Shown here piece after piece: positions 2,621-21,400 of a DNA stretch of 22,453 bases. Every line of letters starts with the position of its first letter. Within the stretch, counting starts at the first letter, position 1. A model generated the notes under the pieces. That model searched no databases, was not told the DNA's origin, and was given only the letters and a program-made list of their open reading frames with translations. The stretch lies in the IMG/VR virus record IMGVR_UViG_2718217868_000005, positions 1 to 22,453 of that record, one strand, 5' to 3'. Made by a program: the position numbers and the translations under genes. The DNA comes from a virus. Its lineage: Duplodnaviria; Heunggongvirae; Uroviricota; Caudoviricetes.

Positions 2621-2732
2621 AACTGAAGTTGCCCTGAAAATGAAATTTTTTTGCACAACCGCAGAACTTTTCCGCAGGGCATCAGTCTTAATTAGTGCCA
2701 CTGCTTTTCTTTGATGTCCCCATTTTGTGGAG

Positions 2733-2776
2733 CCCATCAACCCCGCCATTTCGGTTCAAGGTTGATGGGTTTTTTG
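2733..2776 (+). terminator. Hairpin plus T-tract downstream of ybjL, near the host/prophage boundary
   Basis: Perfect 10-bp stem CCCATCAACC (2733-2742) / GGTTGATGGG (2760-2769), 17-nt loop, then TTTTTT (2770-2775). Confidence 0.5.
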
Positions 2777-2855
2777 TTGCCTGAAATTTAAGCTGTTTAA
2801 AATCATGATGTTAGAAGCATTGTTTTTTAACGATGGCGACAAAATGGCGGCAGCG

Positions 2856-3074
2856 TCAAAGAGAGAGCGCCACCTGTCCTGATTTCATTGGATGCGGCTG
2901 AACCGGATTTGACTCTTTTGGCGTTGCAATCGAACGAACAAAAGTTTCATGGGTAACAAAAGTATGGCTGCAGTTAATGTTCTGGCACTGGTTGTAACGC
3001 TCTTTGGTCAATGAAGATACCTGAAAACTGCTGCGAGTATGGGCGGCACTTCCACACAGTGGGCAAATCATCAT
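2856..3074 (-). CDS. ogr: Ogr/Delta-type zinc-finger late-gene activator (about 72 aa)
   Basis: CPLCG...CQNINCSHTF is a C2C2 zinc finger resembling P2 Ogr. Start chosen at the internal ATG (MMICPLCG); the 11-codon upstream extension is unlikely. Sits just downstream of gene D as in P2. Confidence 0.8.
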   Translation of the reverse strand: MMICPLCGSAAHTRSSFQVSSLTKERYNQCQNINCSHTFVTHETFVRSIATPKESNPVQPHPMKSGQVALSL

Positions 3075-3164: not shown

Positions 3165-4265
3165 TCATTCCATTTCGAAATCATCAATCCTCACTTCAAG
3201 CTCCAGACTGGTCGTAAAACCATTATCCGGGCTTACGGTATGCGTCAGAGTCGTAATGGTCCATTCCGCATCATCTATCGGCTGTTTAAAGCCACTGACT
3301 TTCACTGGCATTTCCGTGTAGAGATCTGCCCGCCCTTCCGCCAGTTGTAGCGAGAATGACGCAACGCCACGTTGCAGGCGTTCCCACTGCATTTTCGCTG
3401 CCCGTTCAGCGTTGCTCCGGTTGGCATAAGTGCGATTAAGTACCAGCACGTTTTCATCCGTCCCCACCAGGTAATCGCCCTGCTTCGCTTCCGGCTCTTT
3501 CTTCTGCTTCTTAGTCCTGCGCTTACGCTTCACCGTAGTGCTTTCTTTCTTCGCGGGTTCGCGGGTATGCAACCAGCTGGCAATGACGCCCGTATAGGCT
3601 CCGCGATCTGCCAGGGTAAAGCGGTGACTGTCGCCGTCCTTACGCGTGATAGTGATCACCGGCAGTGGTTTACCGCTGGCGCTTTTGCCCTGTCCCTGCC
3701 GGATGAATAACAGATTGCCATTTTTCACCGACGCAATAGCACCGTACTGGCGCGCCAGTCGCATCAGAAAACTGCCGTCACTCTCATTGGTCTGGTCTAT
3801 ATGTTCCACGGGTTTATCTGACAGGTCTTTACCCAATGCCATCTTCAGTTTGTGCCGCGCAGCTATTTCCTTCACCACTTCCCCAACGGTGGTCTTGTGC
3901 CACGACTTTTCACGGCGGGTATTCAGCGTTTCACGAAAATCAGCACTTCGCGCCCGGATAGTCAGGCGGTCCGGTGCGCCAGTGTGTTCAATCTCGTCCA
4001 CCGTGAATGCCCCTTTCGGGAAAAGCGGCTGCCCCTTCCAGCCCAGCGCCAGCGTAATAACCGCACCACGGCGCGGCAGCACGATTTTTCCGTCGGCGTC
4101 GTCCAGCTCCAGATCAAGCTGGTCTGCTTCAAAGCCCCGATTGTCCGTCAGCGTCAAACTCATCAGGCGGTTATCCAGCACAGTGGTGATATCCCTGCCC
4201 TCAATACTGATGCTGAATGCGGGAGTTTTGTTGCCTTTGTTAAGCAGTTCAGAGCTGAAATTCAC
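3165..4265 (-). CDS. D: Tail protein D (late control gene D family), 366 aa
   Basis: N-terminus MNFSSELLNKGNKTPAFSISIEGRDITTV matches P2 gpD from memory. Lys/Arg-rich central linker. Start overlaps the stop of U. Confidence 0.9.
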   Translation of the reverse strand: MNFSSELLNKGNKTPAFSISIEGRDITTVLDNRLMSLTLTDNRGFEADQLDLELDDADGKIVLPRRGAVITLALGWKGQPLFPKGAFTVDEIEHTGAPDRLTIRARSADFRETLNTRREKSWHKTTVGEVVKEIAARHKLKMALGKDLSDKPVEHIDQTNESDGSFLMRLARQYGAIASVKNGNLLFIRQGQGKSASGKPLPVITITRKDGDSHRFTLADRGAYTGVIASWLHTREPAKKESTTVKRKRRTKKQKKEPEAKQGDYLVGTDENVLVLNRTYANRSNAERAAKMQWERLQRGVASFSLQLAEGRADLYTEMPVKVSGFKQPIDDAEWTITTLTHTVSPDNGFTTSLELEVRIDDFEME

Positions 4266-4747
4266 GACAGCAGCCCTCCCACCGTTTTACTGATATCGCT
4301 TAAGGCAGACGTTGCCGTGTCCTGCAGATTATTCAGTTGCGCACTGAGATCACCGAACATATCGGACAGGGATTCATCCACCCGTTTGAGCGACAGGGTG
4401 AACTCAATCCGGCGCGGCATACCGTCGCGGAAAAACTCCGTTTTAGTCTGATTCAGTCCCTCAATCACATACATGCCGTAAATCGTGCCGCTGCCTTCAA
4501 TCAGGGGCCATGCTTTCCCCTGTTCTGCCATCTGCTCCAGTACCAGCAACGACAGCCTGCCGCCTGTTATCTCCGGCATAAGAACACCAGAAAGCGTCAG
4601 CATGTCGTTGTCCGGTCCCAGAAACTGCGTGGACGGACGTCGGTTGACCCGGCTGTTTGCCGCATGTCGCCAGCTGCGTTGATACTGCAGTTCCTGATAC
4701 GGCACAGTGCGCAGCATAAACACGTACAATCCCAGCACCATCATCAT
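4262..4747 (-). CDS. U: Tail protein U (161 aa)
   Basis: Position between T and D, with ATGA overlaps at both ends. Sequence resembles P2 gpU from memory. Confidence 0.85.
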   Translation of the reverse strand: MMMVLGLYVFMLRTVPYQELQYQRSWRHAANSRVNRRPSTQFLGPDNDMLTLSGVLMPEITGGRLSLLVLEQMAEQGKAWPLIEGSGTIYGMYVIEGLNQTKTEFFRDGMPRRIEFTLSLKRVDESLSDMFGDLSAQLNNLQDTATSALSDISKTVGGLLS

Positions 4748-7465
4748 GCGTCGTATCCCCCCTGATCGCTGTAGTTACTCCTGGCTTTTGCCTTCAGCCT
4801 GCGTTCACGTTCATCAAGCTGGCGTGCCACCTCCCGCGCAATATCCTGCGCACTTTGTCCTGGCTGCGTCTGGATGATGATCTGCGTCGGTGCCTCAATC
4901 CGTTGAGCGGGCGGCACAGTGGCTGCACGACTCACCATCGCTTCGCCGCCTTTCGCGGGAAGTGCCAAAGGATGTAACGGCGGAAGCTCTGCAGGCGCGG
5001 CAGCAACGCCCATCATTCCGGCAACAACGGCAGCCAGTGCAGCTGTATTTCTCCGACTGGTCACGTTTGCCGGACCGTTGACAATTTCAGGCCCGTTTTC
5101 ACCGACAATGCCGAACTGCCCGCGCGGGATATAGCCGCCGCTGTCATACATCCCCGCAAAGCCATATCCCCATGACGGAAAACCACCCGATGGCATCATC
5201 ACTTTACCGTCTGCATTCACCGTCGCAGGTTGCTGACGCGTCACGCTTTCCGGCAGTTTCGCCTTTGCGGCCTCTTTACTGACAATGCCGAGCTTCTCCA
5301 GCAACCAGGAAACGCCGGATTTCAGGGAGTCCAGCGGATGCATGACCATATTCAGCCCTTCCGCCAGTGCCTCCCCGAATCGCCGCCCCATTGCCGCTGC
5401 GCTCTGCAGTTCGGCAGAGGTCGACTTAACGGGCGTCAGCAGCTCAGTAAACCAGCCCCACAGCGCCTGCACTTTGTCGCCAATCCACTGGAACACGGGC
5501 TTAAGCGGTTCGAACGCTGCACTGATGGGACCTGCCGCCGCTTTGAATCCTTCCACCACGCCACCGAGAAATGCGGTGATGGGTTGCCAGTATTTCCAGA
5601 CAACCAGGGCCACGCCCGCCAGTGCAGTAACCACAAGACCTATCGGACTGAGCAGAGCACCTAACGGAAGATAACGTTTTGATACCCAACACAGAGAATC
5701 CCAGACGGATCACTGCCAGCGGCCCCAGCACTGCAGCCAGCGCCACCGCTAAGGTGCCGAGGCCGACGGTAACCGCAGCCACAACAGCCGATGCTTTCAT
5801 CAGTGTGCCTGTCAGTTCCGGGTTAGCTTCCACCCAGCGACGCAACGCCCCCGTGACGCTTTTCACCGTGTACAGAATATCCATCAGCGGCTGGCGCAGC
5901 GTTTCGCCCAGGCTGCTGAAGGTGTTCTGCGCTCCGGTTTTGACCAGCAACCACTGCGCAGAAAGTGAATCCTTGTTAATGTCGGATTCTTTCTGCATGG
6001 AGCCGAGCGCATCATTGCCCGCTGTCAGTTTTAACTGACGCTGCAGTTCCGGCAGGTTGTTTGCCAGTTTCGCCGCGTCATCGCCAAACTCTTTACCAAA
6101 CAACATAGTCATGGCAGACAGGCGCTTGTCCTGCGGCAGCGCGTTTACCTTCTCCAGCACGCGCTGGATGGTTCCCATCGCATCCTTCGTCATCTGCTTT
6201 TCAATCACTTCAGGATTGAGTTTCAGCAGATTCATCCCTTCAAAGAAACTCTTGCTTTGCATGGTGGCAATGGACAATTCACGCACCATCGCGTTTGCTG
6301 CACTGGCTGCAACCTCTGGCGCAGCGCCCAGTGTCAGGAAGGTGGAACCCAGCGCCGCCGCTTTACGATAATCCAGACGGTCAGCCACACCGCCCAGACG
6401 TTGCATCACATCAATGATGTCTGCCCCTTTCGACATGGCGTTATCATCCAGATAGTTCAGCGCATCACCGAGCTGTTCAATATTGCGGGTGGGGATTTTG
6501 TAGAGCTGGGCGATTTTCCCCAGACTTTCTGACAGTTCATCCGCTGGCAGCTCAAAGGCTGTTGCCGCCTTTGCTGCCGTACTGGCGAAGGCCAGCAGGT
6601 CACGTTTCTGATCTTCCCAGCTGTCGTCAGGGTTTGCGACGTTCATGCGCGCACCACCTTCAACCAGTGCAGCGAAGTCCACCGCACCGTTTTCCATCGG
6701 CAACTGTTCGCTGGCAGCCTTGATGGCATCCTGCATTTCATAAAAACGTGCAGTGCGGTTGCCATTATCGTCACGCAGACCATTGACCTGCTTTGCCACA
6801 CCTTTCATGGCATCTTCCATGCTGGTATAGCTTTTTACTGCCGCCATCACTGGCGCACCCATTGCCAGCCCTGCAGCCGTGGTGGTGGCTCCGGCACCTG
6901 CAATACGATCACGCACCTCCAGCGAACGGGCATAACTGGCACGCGCTGCATTCATCCTGCGCTGAGCTTCCCCCAGTCGCTTCAGCCGCGCCTCCTGTTT
7001 CGAAAGTTCCTGGTTATAACGTGATGTTTCACGGGCTAAACGGGCAGTTGCTCCCGCATCGTCTTTCGCAGAAATTCCCGCCCGGTACAGTTCAGCACGC
7101 ACAAGCGCCGTCTGCTGCTGCAGCTTTTTCTGGCGTTCTTCCAGGCGCTGAACAGCCAGCCGTTGACGGCCCAGAGCAACAACCTGACGTTGCGAAGGCG
7201 GCCCCATCGCTCCCAGTTCCTGACTGAGCAAATTTGCACGCTGGCGGGCATAGTTCAGCCTGTCGCTTAATTTCTGATTTTCTGCCTGCAGCTTTCGGAA
7301 GCTGTCCAGACTGCTCCCGGCCTGATCAAGCTGCTTTATTGCATCGCGGGATTTTTTGACAGCAGCAGCCAGTTCTCTTGAACTGGCCTGCGCAGATCGA
7401 AATGGGCGGGTGAGCTTGTCAACCGCATTAAGAATGACCTGCAGACGCAGGTTGTTATCACTCAT
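4744..7465 (-). pseudogene. T: Tail tape measure gene T, split by a 1-nt frameshift into 654-aa and 296-aa ORFs
   Basis: ORFs 5501-7465 and 4744-5634 are in different frames and overlap by 134 nt. Upstream part is coiled-coil (Q/R/A/L-rich); downstream part has hydrophobic and Gly-rich segments, typical of tape measure proteins. The frame switch maps to about 5665-5700, next to a TTTT run at 5677-5680. Confidence 0.8.
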
Positions 7466-7491
7466 CTTTGGCCCCGCTTCTCTGAATCGCT

Positions 7492-7944
7492 TTATACCGC
7501 CATTCCAGCACTTCGGTCACTGGCGCTGAATGTCAGCATTTCAGTGCCCAGACTGGCAGGGTCATCAGTGGCAGCCAGGCCGACCAGGTAGGCTTTGCCC
7601 GTATCAGCAAACTTCGGGCTGACTTCCATAGAGGTGAATAATTTCTGGCCTTTTTTCACCAGTTCCACCAGGGACTCCGTTGGCTCAACGTCGGCATACA
7701 GCGCCATCTTGCCTGCCAGCGGACCTTCCGTGATTTCTTCAGCAAACAGCGCCGTCACCTTACCGTAGCGGTTAAAGGTGCTGTCCGGCAGATAAGACTT
7801 GATGTGCTCAAGGTTAATCAGCGCGGTATACACCGCCGGGTTGTAGCTGGCTGCCATCTGTTCCAGCCATTCACGCTGGATTTCGCGTCCGTCGGTGGTG
7901 GCACCTTCCACCCCGATGCGAAAACGCTTTGCTTTCACTGTCAT
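7492..7944 (-). pseudogene. O: Capsid scaffold gene O, truncated (N-terminal about 140 aa homologous, then a short unrelated tail)
   Basis: FRIGVEGATTDGREI...INLEH...SMEVSPKFADTGKAYLVGLAATDDPASLGTE matches the N-terminal half of P2 gpO (about 284 aa) from memory. The ORF stops 26 nt before the T start. SD ACGGAG upstream of the ATG at 7944. Confidence 0.8.
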
Positions 7945-8022
7945 GAGCCGTGCTCCGTTAGAAAAAACTTACTGGAGCCTTATGGTTGCGGTGATGGGGG
8001 CAGTGAAACAATGCGCGGTATT

Positions 8023-8040
8023 TGTACCGACAACCACACA
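8023..8040. promoter_or_regulatory. TGT-N12-ACA element, candidate Ogr-dependent late promoter site in the O-P divergent region
   Basis: TGTACCGACAACCACACA sits in the 142-bp O/P intergenic region. P2 late promoters carry a TGT-N12-ACA element near -55 (established knowledge). Which strand it serves is not resolved. Confidence 0.4.
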
Positions 8041-8086
8041 AACCGCAGGCGGGGAAAGCCTTCATTCAAGGTTGTAGGTTTGTGCC

Positions 8087-9853
8087 ATGAACACCACACT
8101 GACACCCGCAGATCTCGATCCCCGTCGGCAGGCCATGCTGCTGTACTTTCAGGGATACCGCGTAGCCCGCATTGCTGAAATGCTGGGCGAGAAAGTTGCA
8201 ACCGTTCACAGCTGGAAAAAACGCGACAAGTGGGGTGACTATGGGCCGCTGGATCAGATGCAGCTCACCACCGCCGCACGCTACTGCCAGCTCATCATGA
8301 AGGAGCACAAAGAAGGGAAAGATTTCAAAGAGATTGACCTGCTGGCGCGCCAGTCGGAGCGCCAAGCGCGGATCGGCAAGTTTAACAATGGCGGCAACGA
8401 AGCTGACTTAAACCCTAACGTCGCCAACCGCAACAAAGGCCCGCGCCGTCAGCCGGAAAAGAATGTCTTCACCGATGAACAGATTGAGAAGCTGGAAGAA
8501 ATCTTCCATTCCTCCATGTTCAACTACCAGCGCCACTGGTGGGAAGTCGGAAAAACCAACCGCATCCGCAACCTGCTGAAGTCACGCCAGATCGGCGCGA
8601 CCTTTTACTTTGCCCGTGAAGCCCTGATTGACGCCCTGCTTACCGGACGTAACCAGATTTTCCTTTCCGCCAGTAAGGCACAGGCCCACGTCTTTAAGCA
8701 GTACATCATCGACTTCGCCAAAGAAGTGGATGTGGAACTGAAAGGCGATCCGATGGTGCTTCCTAACGGGGCCACGCTTTACTTCCTCGGCACCAATGCC
8801 CGCACGGCTCAAAGTTATCACGGCAACCTGTATCTGGATGAATATTTCTGGATACCGAAATTTCAGGAGCTACGCAAAGTGGCTTCCGGTATGGCTATTC
8901 ACAAGAAATGGCGGCAGACCTATTTTTCCACACCATCCAGCCTGACCCACAGTGCTTATCCGTTCTGGTCCGGTGCGCTGTTCAACCGTGGGCGCAACAA
9001 AGCCGATAAGGTGGACATCGACCTGTCCCACAGCAATCTGGCCCCCGGCCTGCTGTGCGCAGACGGGCAATACCGCCAGATAGTCACCGTGGAAGATGCG
9101 GTGCGCGGCGGCTGTAACCTGTTCGACCTTGACCAGTTGCGCATGGAGTACAGCCCGGACGAATACCAGAACCTGCTGATGTGCGAGTTTGTGGACGATC
9201 TCGCGTCCGTGTTCCCGCTCAGCGAGCTGCAGGCGTGCATGGTAGACAGCTGGGAAGTCTGGACTGACTTTCATGCACTGGCCCTGCGCCCGTTTGGCTG
9301 GCGCGAAGTATGGATCGGTTATGACCCGGCGAAAGGTACGCAGAATGGCGACAGCGCCGGATGCGTGGTGGTGGCTCCGCCAACCGTGCCGGGCGGCAAG
9401 TTCCGCATTCTTGAGCGTCACCAGTGGCGCGGAATGGACTTTCGCGCCCAGGCTGACGCCATCAAAAAACTGACCGAACAGTACAACGTGACCTACATCG
9501 GCATCGACTCGACAGGTGTCGGCCACGGGGTTTACGAGAACGTGAAAGCGTTTTTTCCAGCCGTCCGGGAGTTTGTCTACAACCCCAACGTTAAAAACGC
9601 CCTGGTACTCAAGGCCTACGACATTATCAGTCACCGTCGTCTGGAGTTTGACGCCGGACACACCGACATAGCGCAGTCATTTATGGCAATCCGTCGCGCC
9701 ACCACCGCCAGCGGCAACCGCCCAACCTATGAAGCCAGCCGCAGCGAAGAAGCCAGCCATGCCGATCTGGCCTGGGCAACAATGCACGCACTGTTTAACG
9801 AACCGCTGCAGGGCGAGTCCGCCAATACCAGCAATATTGTGGAGATTTTTTGA
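8087..9853 (+). CDS. P: Terminase large (ATPase) subunit, P2 gpP family, 588 aa
   Basis: Size and N-terminus match P2 gpP from memory. Divergent from O and upstream of Q as in P2. Confidence 0.9.
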   Translation: MNTTLTPADLDPRRQAMLLYFQGYRVARIAEMLGEKVATVHSWKKRDKWGDYGPLDQMQLTTAARYCQLIMKEHKEGKDFKEIDLLARQSERQARIGKFNNGGNEADLNPNVANRNKGPRRQPEKNVFTDEQIEKLEEIFHSSMFNYQRHWWEVGKTNRIRNLLKSRQIGATFYFAREALIDALLTGRNQIFLSASKAQAHVFKQYIIDFAKEVDVELKGDPMVLPNGATLYFLGTNARTAQSYHGNLYLDEYFWIPKFQELRKVASGMAIHKKWRQTYFSTPSSLTHSAYPFWSGALFNRGRNKADKVDIDLSHSNLAPGLLCADGQYRQIVTVEDAVRGGCNLFDLDQLRMEYSPDEYQNLLMCEFVDDLASVFPLSELQACMVDSWEVWTDFHALALRPFGWREVWIGYDPAKGTQNGDSAGCVVVAPPTVPGGKFRILERHQWRGMDFRAQADAIKKLTEQYNVTYIGIDSTGVGHGVYENVKAFFPAVREFVYNPNVKNALVLKAYDIISHRRLEFDAGHTDIAQSFMAIRRATTASGNRPTYEASRSEEASHADLAWATMHALFNEPLQGESANTSNIVEIF

Positions 9854-10902
9854 TGGGAAAGAGTAAGAAAAACCGCGCTGCGGCGACGAACCAGATCCAG
9901 CATAAAAACCAAACTTCAGCCGAAGCATTCAGCTTCGGTGATCCCGTTCCTGTTCTGGACCGCCGCGAACTGCTGGACTATGTGGAATGCGTACAGACAG
10001 ATCGCTGGTATGAGCCACCAGTAAGCTTTGACGGACTGGCGCGCACCTTCCGCGCTGCCGTGCATCACAGTTCACCAATTGCGGTGAAATGCAACATTCT
10101 GACCAGTACCTACATCCCTCACCCGCTGCTCAGCCAGCAGGCTTTTTCACGTTTTGTGCAGGACTATCTGGTATTTGGTAACGCCTACCTGGAGAAACGC
10201 ACGAACCGCTTCGGTGAAGTTATCGCCTTTGATCCTGCTCTGGCAAAATACACCCGACGCGGGTTAGACCTAGATACCTACTGGTTTGTGCAATACGGTA
10301 TGACAACCCAGCCGTATCAGTTCACGAAAGGCAGCATTTTTCATCTGATGGAACCGGATATTAATCAGGAGATCTACGGCCTGCCCGGCTATCTTTCTGC
10401 CATTCCGTCCACCCTGCTCAATGAGTCCGCCACGCTGTTCCGTCGAAAGTATTACATTAACGGCAGTCATGCTGGCTTCATCATGTACATGACCGACGCT
10501 GCGCAGAACCAGGAGGATGTGAACAACCTCCGCAACGCGATGAAAAGCGCCAAAGGTCCAGGCAACTTCCGCAACCTGTTTATGTACTCGCCTAACGGCA
10601 AAAAGGACGGGCTTCAGATCATCCCGTTGTCAGAAGTCGCAGCGAAAGATGAATTTCTGAACATCAAGAACGTGAGTCGTGATGACATGATGGCCGCGCA
10701 TCGTGTTCCGCCACAGATGATGGGGATTATGCCGAATAATGTTGGGGGTTTTGGGGATGTGGAAAAAGCGAGCCGTGTCTTCGTCCGCAATGAACTGATG
10801 CCGCTGCAAAAGCGGCTGCAGGAGCTGAATTACTGGCTAGGTAAAGAGGTGATCCGCTTCGAGCCCTACACGCTGGGAATAGACACAAACAACGATAGCT
10901 AA
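9853..10902 (+). CDS. Q: Portal protein, P2 gpQ family (about 349 aa)
   Basis: ATG at 9853 overlaps the P stop (TGATG); GGAG at 9841-9844. The ORF track's TTG at 9850 is a less likely start. Sequence resembles P2 gpQ from memory. Confidence 0.9.
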   Translation: MGKSKKNRAAATNQIQHKNQTSAEAFSFGDPVPVLDRRELLDYVECVQTDRWYEPPVSFDGLARTFRAAVHHSSPIAVKCNILTSTYIPHPLLSQQAFSRFVQDYLVFGNAYLEKRTNRFGEVIAFDPALAKYTRRGLDLDTYWFVQYGMTTQPYQFTKGSIFHLMEPDINQEIYGLPGYLSAIPSTLLNESATLFRRKYYINGSHAGFIMYMTDAAQNQEDVNNLRNAMKSAKGPGNFRNLFMYSPNGKKDGLQIIPLSEVAAKDEFLNIKNVSRDDMMAAHRVPPQMMGIMPNNVGGFGDVEKASRVFVRNELMPLQKRLQELNYWLGKEVIRFEPYTLGIDTNNDS

Positions 10903-10953: not shown

Positions 10954-11625
10954 TTATCGCTCTTCCCCAAGAATTCCGGTCTTAATCAGCTGATTCCAGA
11001 AGTTTTTCATTTTCTGTCCTGTCTGCTGATTAACAAATAGAGATGATCTGGCACCGTGCGGATATCCCATCAACTGCCCGCGCATATCTTCCCAATTTTC
11101 ACAATAAACTGCATGCCGCCAGTTAGGAACCTCGCTTTCAAGCATCAATCCAATTGCTGCTTTTGCTGGAATGGTGCCATCCTCTTCCATATCTTCCGAA
11201 ATAAGCCAATGGCATTTTATTAACAACGGGACGGCGTTGTCATTATAAAGCACAACGTCATCAATCTTCTCAATAGAGAAATGGGCATCCGTGTGCTTTA
11301 GACGTTTTATACCAGCTATAAATTCATCAACCCCATGACCATAAGGACAGGTAAGAATGCCGTTCCTGAAATAGACCGTGTGGTCCAGGTATTTAAAGCT
11401 AGGAGTATTATTGGGAGTCATAGGCGCCCAAATAGCTTTATCTCTTTCCAGCAAAAAAGGATGCCATGCTGGATACCCATCCACTACTGGCCCACATTCT
11501 TCAACAATTTCTTTGAGCTTCGCCCTAACTTTCGAACGCATCTCCTGATTTGAACCTTGTGGAACTAGATATCTGTAAGCATTTTCGAAATTCGATGCTG
11601 CTGCTTCTTCCGCTCTGAAAGCCAT
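10954..11625 (-). CDS. Hypothetical cargo protein (223 aa), function unknown
   Basis: Intact ORF with SD-like GGGGTG about 7 nt upstream of the ATG at 11625. Lower GC than the flanking phage core. Lies between portal Q and the cos-like site, where P2 has essentially no coding sequence. No motif I recognise. Confidence 0.6.
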   Translation of the reverse strand: MAFRAEEAAASNFENAYRYLVPQGSNQEMRSKVRAKLKEIVEECGPVVDGYPAWHPFLLERDKAIWAPMTPNNTPSFKYLDHTVYFRNGILTCPYGHGVDEFIAGIKRLKHTDAHFSIEKIDDVVLYNDNAVPLLIKCHWLISEDMEEDGTIPAKAAIGLMLESEVPNWRHAVYCENWEDMRGQLMGYPHGARSSLFVNQQTGQKMKNFWNQLIKTGILGEER

Positions 11626-11665: not shown

Positions 11666-11845
11666 AATTTCATGCACAAGTTGCAATGTTTGTGTTTTAC
11701 CGCTTAAGCCAATTCCCTCAATAAACAACCTCAACAACTTCCTGTGGGGCGGTTTTTTTGCTGCTGCACCTCACCATTTCAATTTGAAGCCGCTAGCGGG
11801 CCGTAGGCTGTGCCGAGTTTTTGCTATTTCACCTCGTTGCGCGCG

Positions 11846-11864
11846 CTCGTATCCCCGCCACGCC
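11846..11864 (-). other. Candidate cos site (cohesive-end sequence)
   Basis: Minus strand reads GGCGTGGCGGGGATACGAG. The first 13 nt match my recollection of the 19-nt cohesive ends of 186 (GGCGTGGCGGGGAAAGCAT) and P2 (GGCGAGGCGGGGAAAGCAC). Orientation is correct: it reads from cos toward Q. Confidence 0.4.
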
Positions 11865-12060
11865 TGCCCACTTTATGTAGTGGTTTTCATGCACCTGCAT
11901 GATCTACGCAAAAGCCCGCCAGTTCTGGCGGACCTTAGCAAAAACGATCCGCAAACGATCATGCGATCTCATGCGGCATAGTCATGCACTTACGGGGGAA
12001 GTGAAATCCCGTAACCGAATGACCGCTTGAAAAACAAAACTCTCGTTTTTATAAAGCACA

Positions 12061-12149: not shown

Positions 12150-14042
12150 TTAATCAGTTCCCTCAGTAAATAATTTGATTGCATTAGTTAGTGCATAGTC
12201 AATAAAAAACTTTACATGAAAAACCTGAAAGGAGTTATTGGCTGCGTTTTGAGTGAAATCTACAGCTATCTCTTTTAGGCTAATCAACCAGTTGTATTCT
12301 TCGGTCAGTCTGGTTCTGGCATCCCTATCAGAATAACGATCCCTCAAGCTAAATGCCAGTTTCCTCATGATGATTGGGTCAAGTTTCCTATAGCTTTCAA
12401 TGAAAACTTCAGGAGAAACCAAGTGTAAAAAAGGCACGTTATGAAGATTTAGCTGCCTATTATTAGAATGACACAATTCAGATACAAACGATAAATTCCC
12501 TCTTTGCAACTCATCGCTGAACTTCAATGCAAACTCCGGAATTGATTCATCAAACCGTTTCTTCTGCGCTATCTTAATATGCTCAATAATGAGTTTGAAT
12601 TCATCGCTATCCCTGTCAAGAAAACCAAAGCCACGCCATGCCATTAACTCATTATAATGTCTTTGCGCATACTCCTGATGTATATCTTCAGGTCCTAATC
12701 CATTGTAATAAATATCTATATGATGTTTTGTCTCATTTATAATGTCATCAACAGCATCTGTGGTTAAACCTTCTTTCGCCAATGCCAGCAAAATACTCGC
12801 GGTCATCAGGAGTTCACCTAAGGAAGTGATCTTACCTGAAAATAGATTATCCTTGGCAATGGCGTACTGTTCATTAAGCATAGTTTCATTAAGTTCTCGA
12901 TAGTTCCACAAATACTCCCATGCTTGGGCATCGGTGCTTCTAAAAAATCGCGTAATATCCAGCTGAGCGAGAAGATCATGCGTTACCTTTCCATCACAGA
13001 TTAGCTCTCTCCAGTACGCACCATCCAGCAACGTCTCGGTTAATACAGGTGATGAATATTTCTCGACGATCATGTCATACTTAGTTTTGGTACGCCCTTT
13101 ATCTAAAAACATACTATAATTTACATTGCCGATTGAATTGAAATCCTCGTAGTTAAGGTTCCCTCCCCGATACTCCATCGAGAAAATTAATAACTGCTGG
13201 AAAAATACTTTCATAAAATCGTCGTTGCTGACATATTTATCTCCCAAAAGGGAAATGATGCGTTGTACATCAAGAAAGAACTGCCTCAAATGTCTTAGAT
13301 TATTATATTTCGCCGACACATAGAGGTGTTCTATGGTCTGCATATCTTCTTTAAATATATTAGCTACGTGTAAACTACTAATTACGCCCAAGAAAACATT
13401 ACAAGCACTATGTAAATCTGACGTTACTTCAAATGTTTTACCTACAAGCTTTTCTTTTGTTCTTATGTATTCACTGCTAGATTTCTCATCATCATTATTT
13501 ATTCGCTTTTCTCTGTTGATTATTTCTTCTTCATTGGCAACCAGGATCGCTTTGTATCCGTTTACTTCTACAAAGTGATTTATATATCCAAATAAGATTG
13601 GTAAATCTATACCAGCTCTCTCGATATCATCAAAGACCAGCACAAAACCATCTGGTTCTCTGCTAAAGTCGCTAAGATTAATGGTGGGGACACTGGCATT
13701 GACATCTACGTCAGGCTTATTATCGCCATTGAAATCGATCTTGAAAGTAGCCTTAAGCGTATTTTTTAGTACATTTGCACCAAAGATAAGGGCTTTGTTT
13801 GATAGAATAGGATGAAGTTGACGATAGAACTCATCTTCAATCTGCTCAATAGAGTTGACGCCATACAAACTCACTTTAAGAAATTTGAACTCTGAATGCT
13901 TTTGCTTATATTCTTCAAGAACTCGTTCAATGAACCAAGTTTTACCTGATCCCCAAGCACCTTTAAGCATAATGGCGTATTGAGGTTCAGTTTTAAGGCT
14001 AAGGTAATATTCTATATAGTCTTTGATGTACGTATTGTGCAT
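12150..14042 (-). CDS. KAP-family P-loop NTPase (about 630 aa), candidate anti-phage defence protein
   Basis: Walker A GAWGSGKT and Walker B-like FVLVFDDIER (the hhhhDD-x-ER form typical of KAP NTPases). Strongly AT-rich. Start placed at the ATG at 14042 (MHNTYIKDY); the track's TTG at 14093 has no SD. Candidate minus-strand -10 TATAAT at 14152-14157. Confidence 0.7.
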   Translation of the reverse strand: MHNTYIKDYIEYYLSLKTEPQYAIMLKGAWGSGKTWFIERVLEEYKQKHSEFKFLKVSLYGVNSIEQIEDEFYRQLHPILSNKALIFGANVLKNTLKATFKIDFNGDNKPDVDVNASVPTINLSDFSREPDGFVLVFDDIERAGIDLPILFGYINHFVEVNGYKAILVANEEEIINREKRINNDDEKSSSEYIRTKEKLVGKTFEVTSDLHSACNVFLGVISSLHVANIFKEDMQTIEHLYVSAKYNNLRHLRQFFLDVQRIISLLGDKYVSNDDFMKVFFQQLLIFSMEYRGGNLNYEDFNSIGNVNYSMFLDKGRTKTKYDMIVEKYSSPVLTETLLDGAYWRELICDGKVTHDLLAQLDITRFFRSTDAQAWEYLWNYRELNETMLNEQYAIAKDNLFSGKITSLGELLMTASILLALAKEGLTTDAVDDIINETKHHIDIYYNGLGPEDIHQEYAQRHYNELMAWRGFGFLDRDSDEFKLIIEHIKIAQKKRFDESIPEFALKFSDELQRGNLSFVSELCHSNNRQLNLHNVPFLHLVSPEVFIESYRKLDPIIMRKLAFSLRDRYSDRDARTRLTEEYNWLISLKEIAVDFTQNAANNSFQVFHVKFFIDYALTNAIKLFTEGTD

Positions 14043-14370: not shown

Positions 14371-14604
14371 TTAATGCAGCCAGCTGTCGTCTTCCCACAC
14401 TTTCTGCATAATTTTCATCACTTGTTTTCTTTCTTCGTCCAGTTGCAGTCCGGTAAGTTCCACACCGTTAGAGCTACCTTTACGGATACGGATTACCGTT
14501 TTGGGATACAGGGGGCGCAGATTGCGGTAAAGCTCGGATTCAAGGGCGTCCAGGATAGACTGGCTAATCTTCTGCTCTTTATCGATCATTATTTCAATGC
14601 GCAT
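14371..14604 (-). CDS. DinI-family protein (77 aa)
   Basis: MRIEIMIDKEQ...LYRNLRPLYP...KVWEDDSWLH resembles E. coli DinI from memory. SD GAGGTG 5 nt upstream of the ATG at 14604. Second gene of the LexA-box operon. Confidence 0.75.
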   Translation of the reverse strand: MRIEIMIDKEQKISQSILDALESELYRNLRPLYPKTVIRIRKGSSNGVELTGLQLDEERKQVMKIMQKVWEDDSWLH

Positions 14605-14614
14605 AAAAGTCACC

Positions 14615-14803
14615 TCAACTGATGACATCCATTGAGCGGTTGTATTCGTGGGTTCTGATTTTTGCCATGAGTTCATCTGTTAGTTCAGAAACCCACTGCA
14701 AAGCCAGCCCCTTCTCTTCATCACTACACTCACTAGCCGCTACAAGCTTAAGAAAAAAATCAATGCGCTGGAGCTTCAAAGACTCCAAAAAATAGTCCTG
14801 CAT
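14615..14803 (-). CDS. Small SOS-regulated protein (62 aa), possible Tum-like antirepressor
   Basis: ATG at 14803 preceded by AGGAGG with a 4-nt spacer. Its stop overlaps the DinI SD. Lies about 30 bp downstream of the LexA box. The longer 97-aa version would include the LexA box and is rejected. Confidence 0.5.
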   Translation of the reverse strand: MQDYFLESLKLQRIDFFLKLVAASECSDEEKGLALQWVSELTDELMAKIRTHEYNRSMDVIS

Positions 14804-14834
14804 CTTTCCTCCTATGACACCACACGCAATACTG

Positions 14835-14854
14835 TATGTATAACTACTGTTTAT
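14835..14854. promoter_or_regulatory. LexA (SOS) box TACTGTTTATATTTACAGTA
   Basis: Perfect CTGT-N8-ACAG palindrome with an AT-rich spacer, matching the consensus TACTGTATATATATACAGTA. Overlaps the likely promoter of the small ORF/DinI operon. Confidence 0.75.
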
Positions 14855-14956
14855 ATTTACAGTATATAATAATCTTACTGATGTAAAACGTTTTTTTACG
14901 TTCATCATCCTGATATGCCTGGTATTATTAAGAGCACGAATTGTTAACCCGCGTAA

Positions 14957-17371
14957 TTAATACAGGTTCCGCCACTGATCATCTTCCTGCAAACGCTGGT
15001 TCCGATAGAAGATACGCAGGCCTGCTCCTGACGGAATACTGCCTCCGCGAAGGAGTAAATCGACCTCTTTCTCGCTGCCATCAAATCCTCTGGACTTCAG
15101 CTCATACACGAGCTGCAGTCGCTGATGGTCTGTAATTCGCTGTTTGTAGTCTTTACGCCGTTTCGGTTTCACCAGGCGTAACCTTGCTGCCAGTTCCCGG
15201 CGCTCTTTTTTGCTCATACTGTGCAGGTAATCGTGCAACTCCTTGTCATCCATGCTGGTAATGTCCGTTCTGGGGTCCCCATCAGCTGATTTATCTTTCT
15301 CCTGTTGGTTCAAATTTTCAGCAAGGGGACAGTTATTGCCACGAGTCCAAGGGGCGCAAGCGCCCTGGTCGGCTGCCGCCTCCTGAACGTCAACGGCTTT
15401 ACGGACCATTTTCCACTTCACTGCATGAGTGCAGATCTTGCCCTCTGCAATGGGTGACCAGATGCCATAAATACGAATACCGTGATCGCCATAGGCGGTC
15501 GGCTCTTCGTTGATTTCATAAGCGGTTCTGATGAGGTGATATTTACGGGGAACCAGTACGCCGCCCTGCTTCATGATGTAGGTGGCAAAGCAACCAGCAT
15601 CAGCTGCAGCCAGAATGGCATCAAGGCGCGGGTTATCCAGTACCGGCGCACCTGCTTTTTTGTCACCCTGTTGCCTTGCCGCCTGACCAGCCAGCAATCG
15701 CAGTTCACGGTAAGCCTGACGCCCCGGAATGCCAAAGAAGCGGAATTGCTGAACACGATGCAGAGACGCCCAGGCATTAACGTATTCAGCGTTATCACGC
15801 AGAGATTTACCCGTTTCCTTGCTGATCTCGCCAGCCAGACCACGCCCGTCAATGTTCTTACTGATGTATTTCGCGATGTAGCTTGTTGGTGTACCTTTGC
15901 GCGGGTTTATCAGCTCAGACTTAAAGCGTGGTCCTGTGTTATTACCCAGCTCCTCGCGGTCTTCACGAATGGCAAACTTACGCAACAAAGCAGTAATGGC
16001 GCGGCGATCTTTTTTGCGCATAAAACACAACAGGTGCCAGTGAACTGTACCGTCATGATGCGGCTCAGCCACCCGCACGCCATACCAGCGCAATCCGGCT
16101 TTGTACATCGCCTTACGAAATGCAGCAAACATGCCGACCAGATAATCACTGCTTTGTCTTACCGTCGCATTTGTCCAAGTCGGGTTGGGCCTGCCGTTAT
16201 TTAGCGTGGAATGGAAACGTGACGGACAGGTGATGGTGTAGAAAACGGCGCAGTCACCGCGCATTCCCGCGATAAGCTCCAGACCTTTAACACATGCCAT
16301 CATCTCATTGCGGCGATGCGCCGGGTTGCTACTACTGGCATTTACCACGTCCTCCATATCCAGCGTGTCGCCGTCTTCGTTCACCAGTTCATGAGAACGG
16401 AAAAACTCCAGCGACTTACGGCGCTGCTCACGTTTATGCATCACGGCTTCATAGCTGACATAGGGAGATGCTTTTTTGCTGACCAGGCAAACAGCACGCA
16501 ACTGCTCTTCCCGCCATTCGCAACGCATCTTCCATAATTTCCGATACCACCAGTCGGCGCACAACATACGCGCCAGCGAACCCGGAATGAGTTCATAGGG
16601 TACGGGTTTACGGCGGTTTCTTTTCCGGCGGAGTTGCTCAAACGCAGGAGGGATGACATCCAGACGCAGGGTTTCCGCCGCCACCCTTTCCCATGTCTTG
16701 CGGATTTCTTCTGGCTTAACGTCATCGGTGGCATACAAATCACCACAAGCTGCATCAAGGCACATGCTCATATGCGCGGCAACAAGGGTAGACAGGCGCT
16801 TCACCTGATCCTGACTCATTTCAGGCAAGATCAGCAGGCCGTCCAGCCCTTCATGGCTTGCCATAAAACGAAAAGATGCAGATAGCTGGCTGTCGCGTAC
16901 ATGCTCCAGTCGTTCCAGACATGGTTTAATCGTCTCACGCAAATAGCGGGAATAAGCCTTTGGCCTGCCCAGGCTGCTGAAGTATTCAATACGTTGCATC
17001 AGCGGCTTGCTGATATGGGAAGGCTGGGCGTTAACGTCCGCCAGTATGACCATGTCCGGATTAAAACGCTGCTGCTCATGCACCAGCTTTGCCCGGCTAA
17101 TGAGCTTATCCTGCTCCATTTCGCGCTGGACAGGATCACGGGATTCATTAAAGAAATAATGCTCCCAGACCTGATCACTCAGTGCCTCGCGGCGCAGTTG
17201 TTCCTGCTTGTTATCGGCAGCGTACAGAGTGATCAGGTTTGAAAGCGCAGAAACCGGCGCAACTTCCGCCGGGTCCAGATAAGGGTTAATCGCCTTTTTC
17301 GGGCTGTTCCATGAGAATGCTGCGGCGGCCTCGTTAAAGCCGCTGCAGTTGTTCATATCAGCATGGCTCAT
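14957..17371 (-). CDS. A: Replication initiation endonuclease, P2 gpA family (804 aa)
   Basis: Size, position and motifs ([30 protein letters not shown]) match P2 gpA from memory. SD ACGGAG upstream. Start overlaps the dam stop (ATGA). Confidence 0.9.
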
Positions 17372-18225
17372 GCACGCACTCCGTACACGGCAGAACTATC
17401 CACGCCACGCGAAGGATCAAATCCCACCCAGCAGCGCGCCCCAGAAACAGCGATGATTTCTGTTGCAGATTTACTCTCACCAGCTGCTACGCCGATGCTG
17501 CGTTTTGCCTTGATGTAGTGGTGAGTAAAATTGCGATACAGCGAACGGATCAGGGATGTGTCACTGTTAGAAACAATGACCGGATGTCCTTCTGATGACC
17601 GATGTTCAAGAACGGATGCCAGGTGATACTGGTCATCTTCAGTGAAACCATCAGTGTGATAGCTGGAAAACGTACCGTCATACGGCGGATCGCAATACAC
17701 CACATCCCCCGCCTTCAACATCGCCAGCGTTTCATCAAAGCTGGCGCAGATAAACGTTGCTCGTTGGGCTTTCTCTGCAAATGCGCGAATTTCTTTTTCA
17801 GGGAAATACGGATTTTTATAATTACCGTAGGGAATGTTGAAATGCCCGCTCTTGTTATAGCGACATAACCCACGGTAACCGTGACGATTGAGATACAGGA
17901 AATATACCGCTTTCATGAAATCAGTAATTTCAGTTGAGTAATTAAACTCCTGCCTTATGTTGTAATAAGCCACCTCCCTGTTTGCTTCCTTAAATAAAAC
18001 TCTGGCGCGAGATATAAACGATTCACAATCAGCGGCAACCTTTTTATAGAGGTTGATTAAATCAGGATTAATATCCGCAACCAGATAGCTGGGATAACCC
18101 GTCTCCATCATCACAGCACAGGAACCCGCGAAAGGTTCAACCAGTCGCGGGCCAGCTGGAAGATGTTTTTTCAGTTCGGACATTACGGCGGTTTTATTTC
18201 CCGCCCATTTCAGGATGGTGCTCAT
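17368..18225 (-). CDS. DNA adenine methyltransferase (Dam-like), about 285 aa
   Basis: N-terminal ILKWAGNK and catalytic DPPY motifs. Start at the internal ATG ([11 protein letters not shown]), which overlaps the upstream traR-like stop (ATGA). Confidence 0.85.
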
Positions 18226-18449
18226 ACAGCACCTCCGTTGTAATGTTTGCCTTTCAGCTCTGCGATTTCCTGACAGGTAATGCAAAGCTGCACACCTGGA
18301 ATGGCGCGGCGGCGTGCTGGCGGAATTGGCGCTTCACACTCAATGCAAAGCACGCGGGACACGCCCGGCGTTTTGGCACGGGCAGCACGGATATGGCGCT
18401 GGCGTTCTTCTTCAACGCGCTGCTGTACGAGATCCATTGCATCAGCCAT
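18222..18449 (-). CDS. TraR/DksA-family C4 zinc-finger protein (75 aa)
   Basis: CIECEAPIPPARRRAIPGVQLCITC is a CxxC-N17-CxxC zinc finger typical of phage TraR/DksA-like proteins. Translationally coupled to the neighbours on both sides. Confidence 0.75.
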   Translation of the reverse strand: MADAMDLVQQRVEEERQRHIRAARAKTPGVSRVLCIECEAPIPPARRRAIPGVQLCITCQEIAELKGKHYNGGAV

Positions 18450-18688
18450 TAGTGGATCTCCTGCGCTTCGTTCTGGATTGCTTCAGCAGTTACACGCAGT
18501 AGTTCTGCTGCTTCGACGTGGTTTAGCTGGCGGGATGTGATATGACACGCCAGGCTATCAAGGCGAGCTGCCATTGCTTCAGCCCTTGCCCGGCGTTCTT
18601 CCAGACGAGCCTCTGTCAGTAATATATTAAGCCCTGCATCATCCGGTCCGGTTTTAGTCTTGAGGGTTTCAATATTACGCATAATCAA
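18449..18688 (-). CDS. Hypothetical phage early-region protein (79 aa)
   Basis: Intact ORF in the early operon. Its stop overlaps the traR-like start (TAATG). Confidence 0.55.
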   Translation of the reverse strand: MIMRNIETLKTKTGPDDAGLNILLTEARLEERRARAEAMAARLDSLACHITSRQLNHVEAAELLRVTAEAIQNEAQEIH

Positions 18689-18749
18689 TTCTCCTGAATT
18701 TAGATAAAGGGATATCCGGCGGGTTTACGCCATTAATTTCATTAGTTGG

Positions 18750-19091
18750 TTAATTCGGCATGGTTAGCCGTCTGGGAAATAAGCTCACCACTGCACGAAA
18801 ATGATTCATTGCTTTAATCAACTCCCGCTTTTCGTCAGTGGTCAGCTCATTAATGCTGATGCTATGACGTTCAGCTGGAATTTTTGCCATAAAGAATATG
18901 GCAGCCAGTGCTCGTTTATTCTGTTCGTTATTGATATCCCGTGGATCACGCATATCTTTAATAAACCGCTCAAGCTCTGACTCAATATTCAGGCCAAATA
19001 CTTTCGCCCTTAACTCCGCAATGTGATTAAGTCCATTCAGGCGTTCACCGGGGCTTAATGGAACAGTTGCTGCAGCGCCATTAATTGCCAT
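18750..19091 (-). CDS. Hypothetical phage early-region protein (113 aa)
   Basis: Intact ORF in the early operon. No motif I can name. Confidence 0.55.
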   Translation of the reverse strand: MAINGAAATVPLSPGERLNGLNHIAELRAKVFGLNIESELERFIKDMRDPRDINNEQNKRALAAIFFMAKIPAERHSISINELTTDEKRELIKAMNHFRAVVSLFPRRLTMPN

Positions 19092-19113
19092 ACTTCATAT
19101 CCCCCAAACGCAG

Positions 19114-19338
19114 CTATCGTTCTTTGTTCTTACGGTAACGCTCAAGAGGAGATACATTTTTTCGTATCGTCTCTTTAACCTGCTCTCCCCGTAAAAACGT
19201 CCCATCCTTTAACGCGAAAAAGTAACTGCCATCGCCCGACAATGACGGATAGCAACAGAGCAAATCATCTTCAGGTACTGAATAACTCTCCCCTCTGTAA
19301 CGAAACTGATAAACCACTTCACTTTCTGCCGCATACAT
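19114..19338 (-). CDS. Hypothetical phage early-region protein (74 aa)
   Basis: ATG preceded by GGAGAAAG. Protein-like composition. Confidence 0.5.
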   Translation of the reverse strand: MYAAESEVVYQFRYRGESYSVPEDDLLCCYPSLSGDGSYFFALKDGTFLRGEQVKETIRKNVSPLERYRKNKER

Positions 19339-19505
19339 TTGGACTTTCTCCGTTTCCTCGTGGTCAATTCAGACAGCAATTCATCTTGTGAATGACATGG
19401 ATGCCAGCGTTTTCCATCCTCACCCGTGATCCAGCCGTGACCGTAGTGCATTGCCGGGCTTTGTTTTACCAGCAGCGATGCAAATGATGGTTCTTTCGTC
19501 AGCAT
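19209..19505 (-). CDS. Hypothetical small protein just downstream of cII; its 3' part overlaps the 74-aa ORF out of frame
   Basis: ATG at 19505 preceded by GAGGTG, 7 nt after the cII stop. The first 55 aa look protein-like; the tail (CMRQKVKWFISF...) looks like out-of-frame read-through. Confidence 0.4.
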   Translation of the reverse strand: MLTKEPSFASLLVKQSPAMHYGHGWITGEDGKRWHPCHSQDELLSELTTRKRRKSKCMRQKVKWFISFVTEGRVIQYLKMICSVAIRHCRAMAVTFSR

Positions 19506-19512
19506 AAGCACC

Positions 19513-20031
19513 TCACAGCAAACCGAATGAAGCACCGAGGCCAGTCACGGTATCAACTGCACTCGCCATCGCAGGGTTAGCCTGTAAACGGGCCTGCAAT
19601 GAAACAGCAGCCAACGCCATCAGTCGTGTTACAGAGTTAATGCTGCTGATAGCATCACGACGACCTGCACTGGTTTTTACATCGCCAGATACCGCACCTG
19701 CAGCAACACGCCCGATCTCTGCGGTTGCACTCATGACGTAATGTGGCAGTTTCTCTTTTGCCACCTCATTAATTGGTACGCATGGCAGGCAGTGAATCTG
19801 TGCCAGAAAACCATCTACCAACGTTGAATCTTCAGTCAGATCGGTAAGCAGCCAGATTTCTGGTGCGGTTAATAAATGAGGTTGAGCTGGGTTCAGCTTG
19901 TTCCGCAGAATCTGCACATTCATGCCCGCACGTTCTGCCAGTTGCACCAGATTGTGGCGCAGTGCGAATGCACGACAGGCTTCATCAAAATGTGGATGTT
20001 TGGAAACTTGGTAATCAAACATGGTTTTCAA
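19513..20031 (-). CDS. cII: CII-like lysogeny-establishment regulator (186 CII family), about 170 aa
   Basis: HTH region [18 protein letters not shown] and overall sequence resemble phage 186 CII from memory. Follows apl in the early rightward operon. The true start may be the ATG three codons in (MFDYQ). Confidence 0.75.
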
Positions 20032-20086
20032 CTCCGAACTTATCGCAAAATCGAACTCAGCGTCTTATTGCGAAAATAGACGTCTA

Positions 20087-20290
20087 TTAAGCAGACAAAG
20101 CATCAACAGTCAGAGCAGCCAGGTTAATCATTACCTTTTCACGTTTTTTGTCTTTACGAAGACGATGACGAGGTAGTCGGCCATCAGCCAACATGTCGTT
20201 AATCGTATCAATAGAAAGGCCAGTCAGTTCGCTATAACGTTCGATTGTGACATGTGGTGTATTCAGAGTAATTGAAATGTTAGGTGTCAT
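20087..20290 (-). CDS. apl: Apl/Cox-like excisionase and transcriptional regulator (67 aa)
   Basis: Small HTH protein ([22 protein letters not shown]), first gene of the operon divergent from cI, as for 186 apl and P2 cox. Confidence 0.65.
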
Positions 20291-20379
20291 AAGGCAACAT
20301 TCCTTCTAGATATGGCTTGTGGCGAGCCGTTGTTTGTCGTGATTAGTAGTGAAGGCTCCAAAAGAACACTTCTGGTTCA

Positions 20380-20408
20380 ACTTTAAGATCGCTTTTGGAA
20401 TCTGTCAA
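20380..20408 (-). promoter_or_regulatory. Candidate lytic promoter (pR-like) for the apl-cII operon
   Basis: On the minus strand: TTGACA (20403-20408), 17-nt spacer, TAAAGT (20380-20385), about 80 nt upstream of the apl ATG. The matching lysogenic promoter was not located. Confidence 0.35.
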
Positions 20409-20435
20409 CGAATTTTGGATTTCTTTGGAGGACTT

Positions 20436-21005: not shown

Positions 21006-21020
21006 TACCGGGAGGAAACT

Positions 21021-21212
21021 ATGCTTGGTAAGGTATTTTTTGTGGTTTTGTCATGTTCTTTGTTATTAAACCCACTAACTACCTATGCTAGAAATTATCC
21101 CTGCTCAGGGAAAAAGGGAGGTGTTTCTCACTGTACCTCAGATGGCAAATTCGTTTGCAATGATGGAACTATTAGTAAATCCAAAAAAATCTGTACTAAA
21201 AACTCACGATAA
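21021..21212 (+). CDS. Small secreted Cys-rich basic peptide (63-aa precursor)
   Basis: Strong SD GGAGGA 4 nt before the ATG. N-terminal signal peptide ([23 protein letters not shown]) with a likely cleavage site after TYA. Predicted mature part is about 40 aa with 4 Cys and many Lys. Lies between cI and int. Confidence 0.55.
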
Positions 21213-21400
21213 CTTTTGCTTTTATATCTGCGTCTAAAACAAAAATGAGCCGCAGGTTAACCGCAAAAGTTACATGCTCACATAGCAAAAAGAATAGCCA
21301 ACTTCATTATGGCTTCAGTGAGATGTATGGTCGTAGGATTTCATACATTGACACTGGTTATACATACAGTAAAAATGCTCTCTACTGGAGGGCATTTTTT

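Follow-up and report, generated by a model that had tools for sequence, protein, structure and literature searches.

Defective P2-like prophages that carry conserved defence genes have been described in the literature, and the possibility that they are being domesticated has been raised as a question (PMC13586616); the idea that such a prophage may be retained for its cargo is, therefore, already a published one (PMC13586616). Rousset et al. described the gpA-gpQ locus, next to cos, as a defence hotspot of P2-like phages (PMC9122126). In those defective P2-like prophages (PMC13586616), and in the cryptic prophages of E. coli, virion or mobility genes have become pseudogenes and the cargo of the hotspot is identical to that of intact elements. 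The element that we describe here, which is found in E. coli H5 and H6, resembles them in both respects, but differs in being extremely young, in being limited to one lineage, and in being intact everywhere outside two deletions. A comparison can also be made with P4-type satellites, in which a P2-type cos is likewise present and any packaging requires structural genes of the P2 type. Nevertheless, P4 possesses a primase and regulators of its own, as well as the capsid-size determinant Sid, none of which is found here, and it did not derive from P2 by deletion.

The window, by which we mean the whole 22,453-bp stretch of DNA that was analysed, corresponds with 100% identity (BLAST) to positions 3292505-3314957 of the E. 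coli H6 chromosome (NZ_CP010170.1), and its sequence is identical in E. coli H5. The element within it is recognisable as a 186-like prophage of the P2 family (Peduoviridae), inserted at the 3′ end of rybB, with ybjL on one side and rcdA on the other. Peduoviridae records match the window at 94 to 99.8% identity, and its open reading frames and Pfam matches follow the P2 order of portal, terminase, GPO, tape measure, GpU, GPD, and ogr, with Q-P and O arranged divergently and T-U-D-ogr at the far end, beside att. The PGAP annotation also provides the components of a 186-type early region, namely an integrase, CI, the CII, Fil, and Apl-position genes, and the rolling-circle endonuclease A. In full, this region holds a DinI-like gene, replication endonuclease A, a Dam methylase, a TraR/DksA-like gene, DUF2732 and DUF5347 genes, Fil, CII, the Apl-position gene, the repressor CI, and the integrase (21401-22453). 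The coordinates of these and other features are collected in Table 1, together with the recurrent deletion endpoints discussed below.

Table 1. Features of the window and recurrent deletion endpoints. Coordinates are those of the window unless preceded by L005, the locus that holds the intact prophage of strain ML35; a slash within a sequence marks the junction.
Feature	Coordinates	Strand	Status, evidence, or use
Host genes grxA (part), ybjM, ybjL	Left end of window, before rybB
sRNA gene rybB	2700-2778	+	Rfam RybB, 105 bits
Right att core ATGGGTTTTTTGTT, 14-mer (predicted)	2765-2778	+	3′ end of rybB; direct repeat in the H6 locus
ogr	2856-3074	-	Intact; PGAP
D	3165-4265	-	Intact; Pfam Phage_GPD, PGAP
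U	4262-4747	-	Intact; Pfam Phage_P2_GpU, PGAP
T, tape-measure pseudogene	4744-7465	-	PGAP "frameshifted"; intact T of relatives is 3,078 bp
E′ remnant (tail assembly chaperone frameshift extension), last 62 nt	7458-7519	-	Overlaps the start of T by 8 nt
O′, truncated capsid scaffold/protease gene, 150 aa	7492-7944	-	Pfam PF05929, alignment, PGAP
P/O divergent late-promoter intergenic region	7945-8086		Intact; 99.99% continuous identity with the ML35 prophage
Large terminase P	8087-9853	+	Intact; Pfam Terminase_6N/6C/5; accession as in ML35
Portal Q	9853-10902	+	Intact; Pfam Phage_portal; accession as in ML35
223-aa protein, no assigned function	10954-11625	-	Cargo region
cos-type non-coding segment (predicted)	~11828-11990		Minus-strand core GGCGTGGCGGGGATACGAG, near 11848-11866
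KAP-family P-loop NTPase	12150-14042	-	Pfam KAP_NTPase; PADLOC PDC-S49
Early region	14371-22453		Intact; zero pseudogene flags in PGAP
E′ site, TG/ACCGAAGTGCTGG	L005 31370-31373		Six uses: H5/H6, S43, AST205, TBE6/TST3, F829, food-metagenome contig
T site, TA/GGTGCTCTG	L005 33585		Second deletion of H6, NCTC9041, NCTC_13148
T site, GTTA/CGGCAG	L005 33229/33230		Left end of a deletion in H6 and right end of one in 38A23CPO011
O codon 260 site, GGACTA/	L005 17836-17839		Three events
M site, GCGCTG/	L005 19492		Two events
P-O spacer site, GTGGTTG/	L005 16971		Two events
T site, GGAGA(A)/	L005 32741		Two events

The 14-bp att core is repeated on the far side of the integrase gene, immediately outside the window. 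The core coincides with the terminator end of rybB, and the 3′ end of RybB is regenerated upon integration. The cos-type segment is conserved across P2-like phages, and its core, a 186-type variant (GGCGTGGCGGGG), was located by reading this conserved segment; a search for the P2 cos 19-mer gave zero matches with up to 3 mismatches allowed. The cos and att cores are predicted sites, assigned at the level of sequence. The ybjL/rybB site is a very common integration site for P2-like prophages: the ogr-D end adjoins ybjL in approximately 1,105 of 5,426 complete E. coli genomes, or about one fifth of them.

The best reference for this locus is E. coli ML35 (NZ_CP025747.1), in which a complete prophage occupies the same site and almost all of the genes in common have identical protein accessions. 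Across the ~19.7 kb of prophage that the two have in common, the window departs from ML35 by 2 SNPs, one in T (7267) and one in the methylase gene (18098); a single mismatch was counted over 14,936 bp of alignment and another over 1,858 bp, and two gaps are the sole structural differences. The ML35 prophage and phage 500465-1 (Wadgaonvirus, Peduoviridae) share with the H5/H6 element the integration site, the integrase, CI, CII, Fil, A, the DinI-like gene, and the KAP NTPase, as well as the portal, terminase, U, D, and ogr proteins; in contrast to them, late genes (13,890 bp against ML35) and a 356-bp piece of T are missing from the H5/H6 element.

The larger of these two gaps is a deletion whose ends lie in O and E′. 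When the window was compared with three intact relatives (BLAST), the flanking pieces were found to abut at 7518/7519 with a 2-nt overlap: the sequence to the right of this point continues into O and P, and that to the left into E′ and T, which in the intact relatives are found 13 to 14 kb away from there. The missing stretch measures 13,890 bp against the ML35 prophage, 13,634 bp against that of strain MFDS1006657, and 13,659 bp against phage 500465-1. Base by base, the junction reads ...GCGCCAGTG/ACCGAAGTG..., with the TG (in phage orientation) common to the O side and the E′ side, and it is located 54 nt upstream of the start of T. Relative to ML35, the losses are, in succession, the C-terminal half of O, N, M, L, X, the holin, the lysozyme, LysB/LysC, R, S, a small ORF, V, W, J, I, the genes for the fibres and for their assembly, the invertase, the sheath, the tube, E, and the 5′ part of E′. 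Thus, the absence of the whole block from capsid to E/E′, which the preliminary description had reported from the sequence, is confirmed by the intact sisters. Of the genes that a complete prophage has for its major capsid, full scaffold, small terminase, head completion, lysis, baseplate, fibres, sheath, and tube, as well as E/E′ and an unbroken T, all are absent or broken in the window and present in the sisters. The open reading frame of O does end after about 150 codons, 26 nt before the ATG of T (7465), as had been noted, but the alignment to intact relatives places the physical junction not at this stop codon but at 7518/7519, within the frame.

Consequently, O′ is a composite reading frame. 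Codons 1-142 (7519-7944) are genuine O, as judged by alignment to the intact 277-aa O of the relatives, and codons 143-150 (DRSAGMAV) with the stop (7492-7518) are the 3′ end of E′ read out of frame. The intact protein of the relatives, with 277 aa, is longer than the 150 aa that an earlier caveat had considered as a possible full length in this phage family, and O′ aligns only with positions 2-139 of the 268 positions of the Pfam Phage_GPO profile (PF05929). RefSeq/PGAP labels O as "GPO family... incomplete, missing C-terminus" and E′ as [quoted passage not shown], and O, E′, and T are the only genes of the element with pseudogene flags. In P2 gpO, residues 1-141 constitute the protease domain and residues 195-284 the scaffold domain (PMC7552001). 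Given that 142 genuine codons remain, the surviving O′ is essentially the protease domain alone. The agreement with the published domain limit is almost exact, and O′ lies behind an intact late promoter region, so that a free-standing O protease domain could be made on induction; the coincidence of the two limits is, however, probably fortuitous. If the O-side late promoter acts as it does in P2, it would now read O′, the broken T, U, and D.

The second gap is found within T. It is a deletion of 356 bp with a GTTA microhomology (in phage orientation) at its junction, 5662-5665, which reads ...CCGTTA/GGTGCTC.... Because 356 is not divisible by three, T retains about 600 genuine N-terminal codons, after which the frame is shifted and the C-terminal part becomes readable in another frame (ORF 4744-5634). 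T had previously been described as frameshifted, and its reading frame is indeed broken, but by this internal deletion and not by a point frameshift. The contiguous sequence at 5662-5665 was seen only in H5 and H6, the 356 extra bp being present in all of the top-ranked matches listed; approximately 975 other genomes cover most of the T-junction query.

We consider it highly probable that the element originated as a 186-like prophage at rybB that subsequently suffered two illegitimate, short-microhomology deletions in the H5/H6 lineage. After integration, one deletion (13,890 bp, TG overlap) would have fused O codon 142 to the last 62 nt of E′ and stripped the genome of its genes for the capsid, the small terminase, head completion, lysis, the baseplate, the fibres, the invertase, the sheath, the tube, and E, and the other (356 bp, GTTA overlap) would have broken the frame of T, leaving a defective prophage of ~19.7 kb. 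Across approximately 25 junctions mapped in E. coli genomes and one metagenome contig, as described below, the mean microhomology is 2.4 nt (range 0-8), against 0.67 nt expected for random joins, an excess that we read as the signature of short-homology illegitimate recombination. As for the time scale, the exact O-E′ junction is present in 2 of 5,426 genomes, namely H5 and H6, which are nearly identical and are counted here as one lineage. Given this restriction, and given that the intact sister is only 2 SNPs away in a different host background, the deletion must be very young. Furthermore, 16 of all 18 mismatches between the window and ML35 fall in the host gene ybjL, which indicates that the phage has been in the H5/H6 and ML35 hosts for less time than these hosts have been diverging. 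The order of events suggested by these comparisons is that a functional phage arrived and that it was then deleted, very recently, within the H5/H6 lineage.

The deletions presumably took place in the lysogen; a genome without capsid genes could not have transferred unaided. What remains comprises CI immunity, CII/Fil, the Apl-position gene, the integrase, both att cores, A, the cos-type segment, P, Q, U, D, ogr, and the candidate defence gene. The regulatory, replication, and cargo modules had been thought to be intact, and both the PGAP flags (O, E′, and T only) and the accessions, which are those of ML35 apart from one SNP in the methylase gene, bear this out. Judging from this gene content, the H5/H6 element may still be able to excise and replicate, but, with no shell, small terminase, tail, or lysis genes, it would be unable to form particles or to lyse the cell. 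The earlier proposal that the prophage cannot form particles on its own is, thus, in agreement with the loss of its structural and lysis genes and with the broken T. The loss of the lysis genes would presumably also make SOS induction survivable.

Other explanations of the locus are possible, but they account for the data less well. It might be supposed, for instance, that the junction is an artefact of assembly and that the real genome possesses the structural genes. This is extremely unlikely, as the O-E′ and T junctions are identical in two separate complete assemblies, those of H5 and H6, and analogous junctions occur in many other genomes. A search for the missing genes elsewhere, which had been named as a check on the deletion, found none of them in H5 or H6 at sister-level identity: a 4-kb piece of the deleted ML35 segment matched ML35 and other strains at 99.4-100%, and O/T-type sequence occupied a single place per record in both strains. 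It is also conceivable that the element is an evolved, satellite-like parasite that obtains its missing parts from a P2-like helper, and such a life would be in keeping with its retention of a cos-like segment, of A and int, of both att cores, and of P and Q. We regard this reading as very improbable, however. Two fresh deletions, one of which wrecks T out of frame, and 2 SNPs are all that separates the element from a complete phage, and capsid-size or helper-manipulating genes are lacking; in fact, satellite-specific genes (primase alpha, sid/psu/delta-type) were found neither in the annotation nor in a Pfam scan of the element. No second P2-type prophage was detected in H5 or H6 at megablast sensitivity, and ~19.7 kb is far from the P2 headful of ~33 kb. 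A domesticated tailocin (R-type bacteriocin) was rejected as well, since the pattern is the opposite of the one expected: the element has lost its sheath, tube, baseplate, fibre, and lysis genes but retains the portal and the large terminase.

A further alternative is that the defective prophage is kept by selection for its cargo, that is, that an anti-phage gene has been domesticated. The KAP NTPase matches the PADLOC profile PDC-S49 over residues 19-641 with E = 2.8e-161, and membership of this profile makes it a candidate defence gene, located, moreover, in the gpA-gpQ, cos-proximal locus known as a defence hotspot (PMC9122126). Defective P2-like elements with conserved defence genes have been reported (PMC13586616), and an older deletion derivative, spread over at least 24 genomes at the same locus, has retained its early region and its cargo in the one member examined in full. 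On the other hand, the H5/H6 deletion is restricted to one lineage, in an element only 2 SNPs away from its intact sister; nothing else has decayed, so that the non-cargo genes are preserved as well as the cargo; and PDC-S49 has only candidate status as a defence system. Because the deletion is so young, there has been no time for selection, and retention for cargo would leave no trace in this element. Thus, the proposal that the prophage has been retained for its cargo is not supported as stated, and we judge it unlikely for H5/H6, although the general idea accords with the older, widespread derivatives and with the published pattern. Regarding the cargo itself, that of the window is present in 24 genomes at 99.3-100% identity. 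The 223-aa protein, which had zero matches in Pfam or PADLOC, travels with the KAP NTPase in these 24 genomes, and some genomes carry the NTPase alone.

Returning to the two-deletion history, the comparison of the same locus in related strains, which had been suggested as a further check, uncovered analogous late-region deletions, and around 25 junctions were mapped. E. coli genomes were searched with queries of 3.6 kb and 8 kb spanning the junction, and in many of them the Q-P-O side was found close to the T-U-D side. The mapped set consists of 20 E. coli genomes and one metagenome contig, with loci L003, L006-L010, and L012-L025 placed on L005, and the derivatives in it are the top-ranked matches of one search. 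Their deletions begin in P, in the P-O spacer, or in O, M, L, or X and extend to the fibre genes, the sheath, the tube, E, E′, or T. For example, in S43, AST205, TBE6, F829, NCTC9041, and the class represented by strain 1223, one or more large deletions, with a microhomology of 0-8 nt, have brought Q-P-O together with the E/T-U-D side, and several of them share the exact E′ or T breakpoints of the window. They differ from H5/H6 in the partner endpoints, in the cargo, and sometimes in the integration site, which is ssrA in strain 300709. Considered in this context, the H5/H6 deletion is one more case of a common and known form of prophage decay, and RefSeq already flags its pseudogenes.

Some of these derivatives merit individual mention. 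One that joins O codon 26 to T (L005 17135/33794) occupies the ybjL site in at least 24 genomes, whose strains come from several countries and were obtained from dogs, cattle, pigs, humans, and water. Strain 1223 (L013), the sole fully examined member of this class, has an intact early region and intact cargo, with a cargo gene of the TIGR02391 family, and at least one other member, strain 26561, has a different gene beside the portal. As an example of possible long-term retention, this class is a stronger candidate than H5/H6. A food-metagenome contig, UOZX01000741 (L012), is heavily eroded: it has lost CII to Q, O codon 261 to the E′ site, and 829 bp within T, and this last deletion begins 10 nt from the T breakpoint of H6. 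In strain 300709 (L003), a different P2-like prophage located at ssrA has its own O-to-E deletion, and its T is cut, beside attR/ssrA, at L005 32741, the same coordinate at which a deletion in strain D2 has its endpoint.

When all of the junctions were checked base by base, deletion endpoints were found to recur, to the nucleotide, with different partners at seven sites on L005 (Table 1). Three of the four endpoints in the window are recurrent sites, matched within 1-3 nt in independent lineages. The most frequently used is the E′ site, which has been joined to O codon 142 in H5/H6, to three different positions in P in S43, AST205, and TBE6/TST3, to the sheath gene in F829, and to O codon 261 in the metagenome contig. 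We treat the events that share endpoints as independent lineages because their flanks differ by 0.3-5% and because they carry different cargo. The 52 endpoints form 25 coincident pairs (within 4 nt); the expected number is 1.25, and the highest value reached in 20,000 simulations with random placement within the same two zones was 8. The recurrence of endpoints is, thus, statistically solid. The metagenome contig, one of the six E′ cases, came from a search aimed at the E′ endpoint, while the other five came from searches independent of that endpoint. That scan for the E′-endpoint pattern gave one new independent case in metagenomes, recovered only the S43 element again in IMG/VR, and found nothing in the GTDB genomes.

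A fixed end combined with variable partners is what would be expected from recurrent site-specific breaks or from sites of replication arrest. A refinement of the favoured history is that the deletions used fragile sites specific in sequence or structure, subject to strand breakage, replication arrest, or cleavage by a type II topoisomerase. The reuse of three window endpoints with different partners, the four further recurrent sites, and the excess of coincident pairs argue for it, whereas the sample is the top of a single ranked search, one E′ case came from an aimed search, and tests for Chi, hairpins, a shared motif, and one CRISPR register were all negative. Weighing these points, we find the refinement about evenly balanced. 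The broader claim that the P2/186-like late region holds a few nucleotide-precise fragile sites, such as those at E′ (7518/7519) and T (~5662-5665), at which independent E. coli lineages have repeatedly been broken, and that inactivation proceeds through a specific mechanism instead of random decay, is more tentative, and we lean somewhat against it.

The candidate causes were considered one by one. RecBCD acting at Chi does not fit, as the Chi octamer (GCTGGTGG) is absent from both strands of the prophage. The absence of Chi from the 34-kb ML35 prophage (L005 2400-36700), in which around one copy would be expected by chance, is not significant alone. Hairpins or cruciforms, acting through SbcCD or slippage, were discarded in view of the folding of 60-nt windows at the seven sites, with a mean of -7.7 kcal/mol against -7.5 for the background and only 1 site in the lowest 5%. 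For a shared recognition motif, the best k-mers were no commoner among the hot sites than at random positions. With regard to CRISPR self-targeting, a repeat-spacer-repeat query for a single register of type I-E, with an ATG PAM, in which PAM and seed would fall at the E′ breakpoint, found no array with the corresponding spacer in 5,426 genomes. Finally, a ceiling of 4 nt on microhomology, which could have hinted at the stagger of a type II topoisomerase, is contradicted by overlaps of 5 and 8 nt.

The deletion that we describe is already known in kind, both from the RefSeq flags and from the defective P2-like prophages with defence cargo in the literature. What the H5/H6 prophage offers is a clean, datable example of the first step in prophage decay, in which both breakpoints can be read to the base because an intact sister is only 2 SNPs away. 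If the reuse of endpoints is site-specific, it would point to a defined source of DNA breaks in lysogens and, if true, it would provide a testable handle on how bacteria disarm their prophages and yet keep useful genes.
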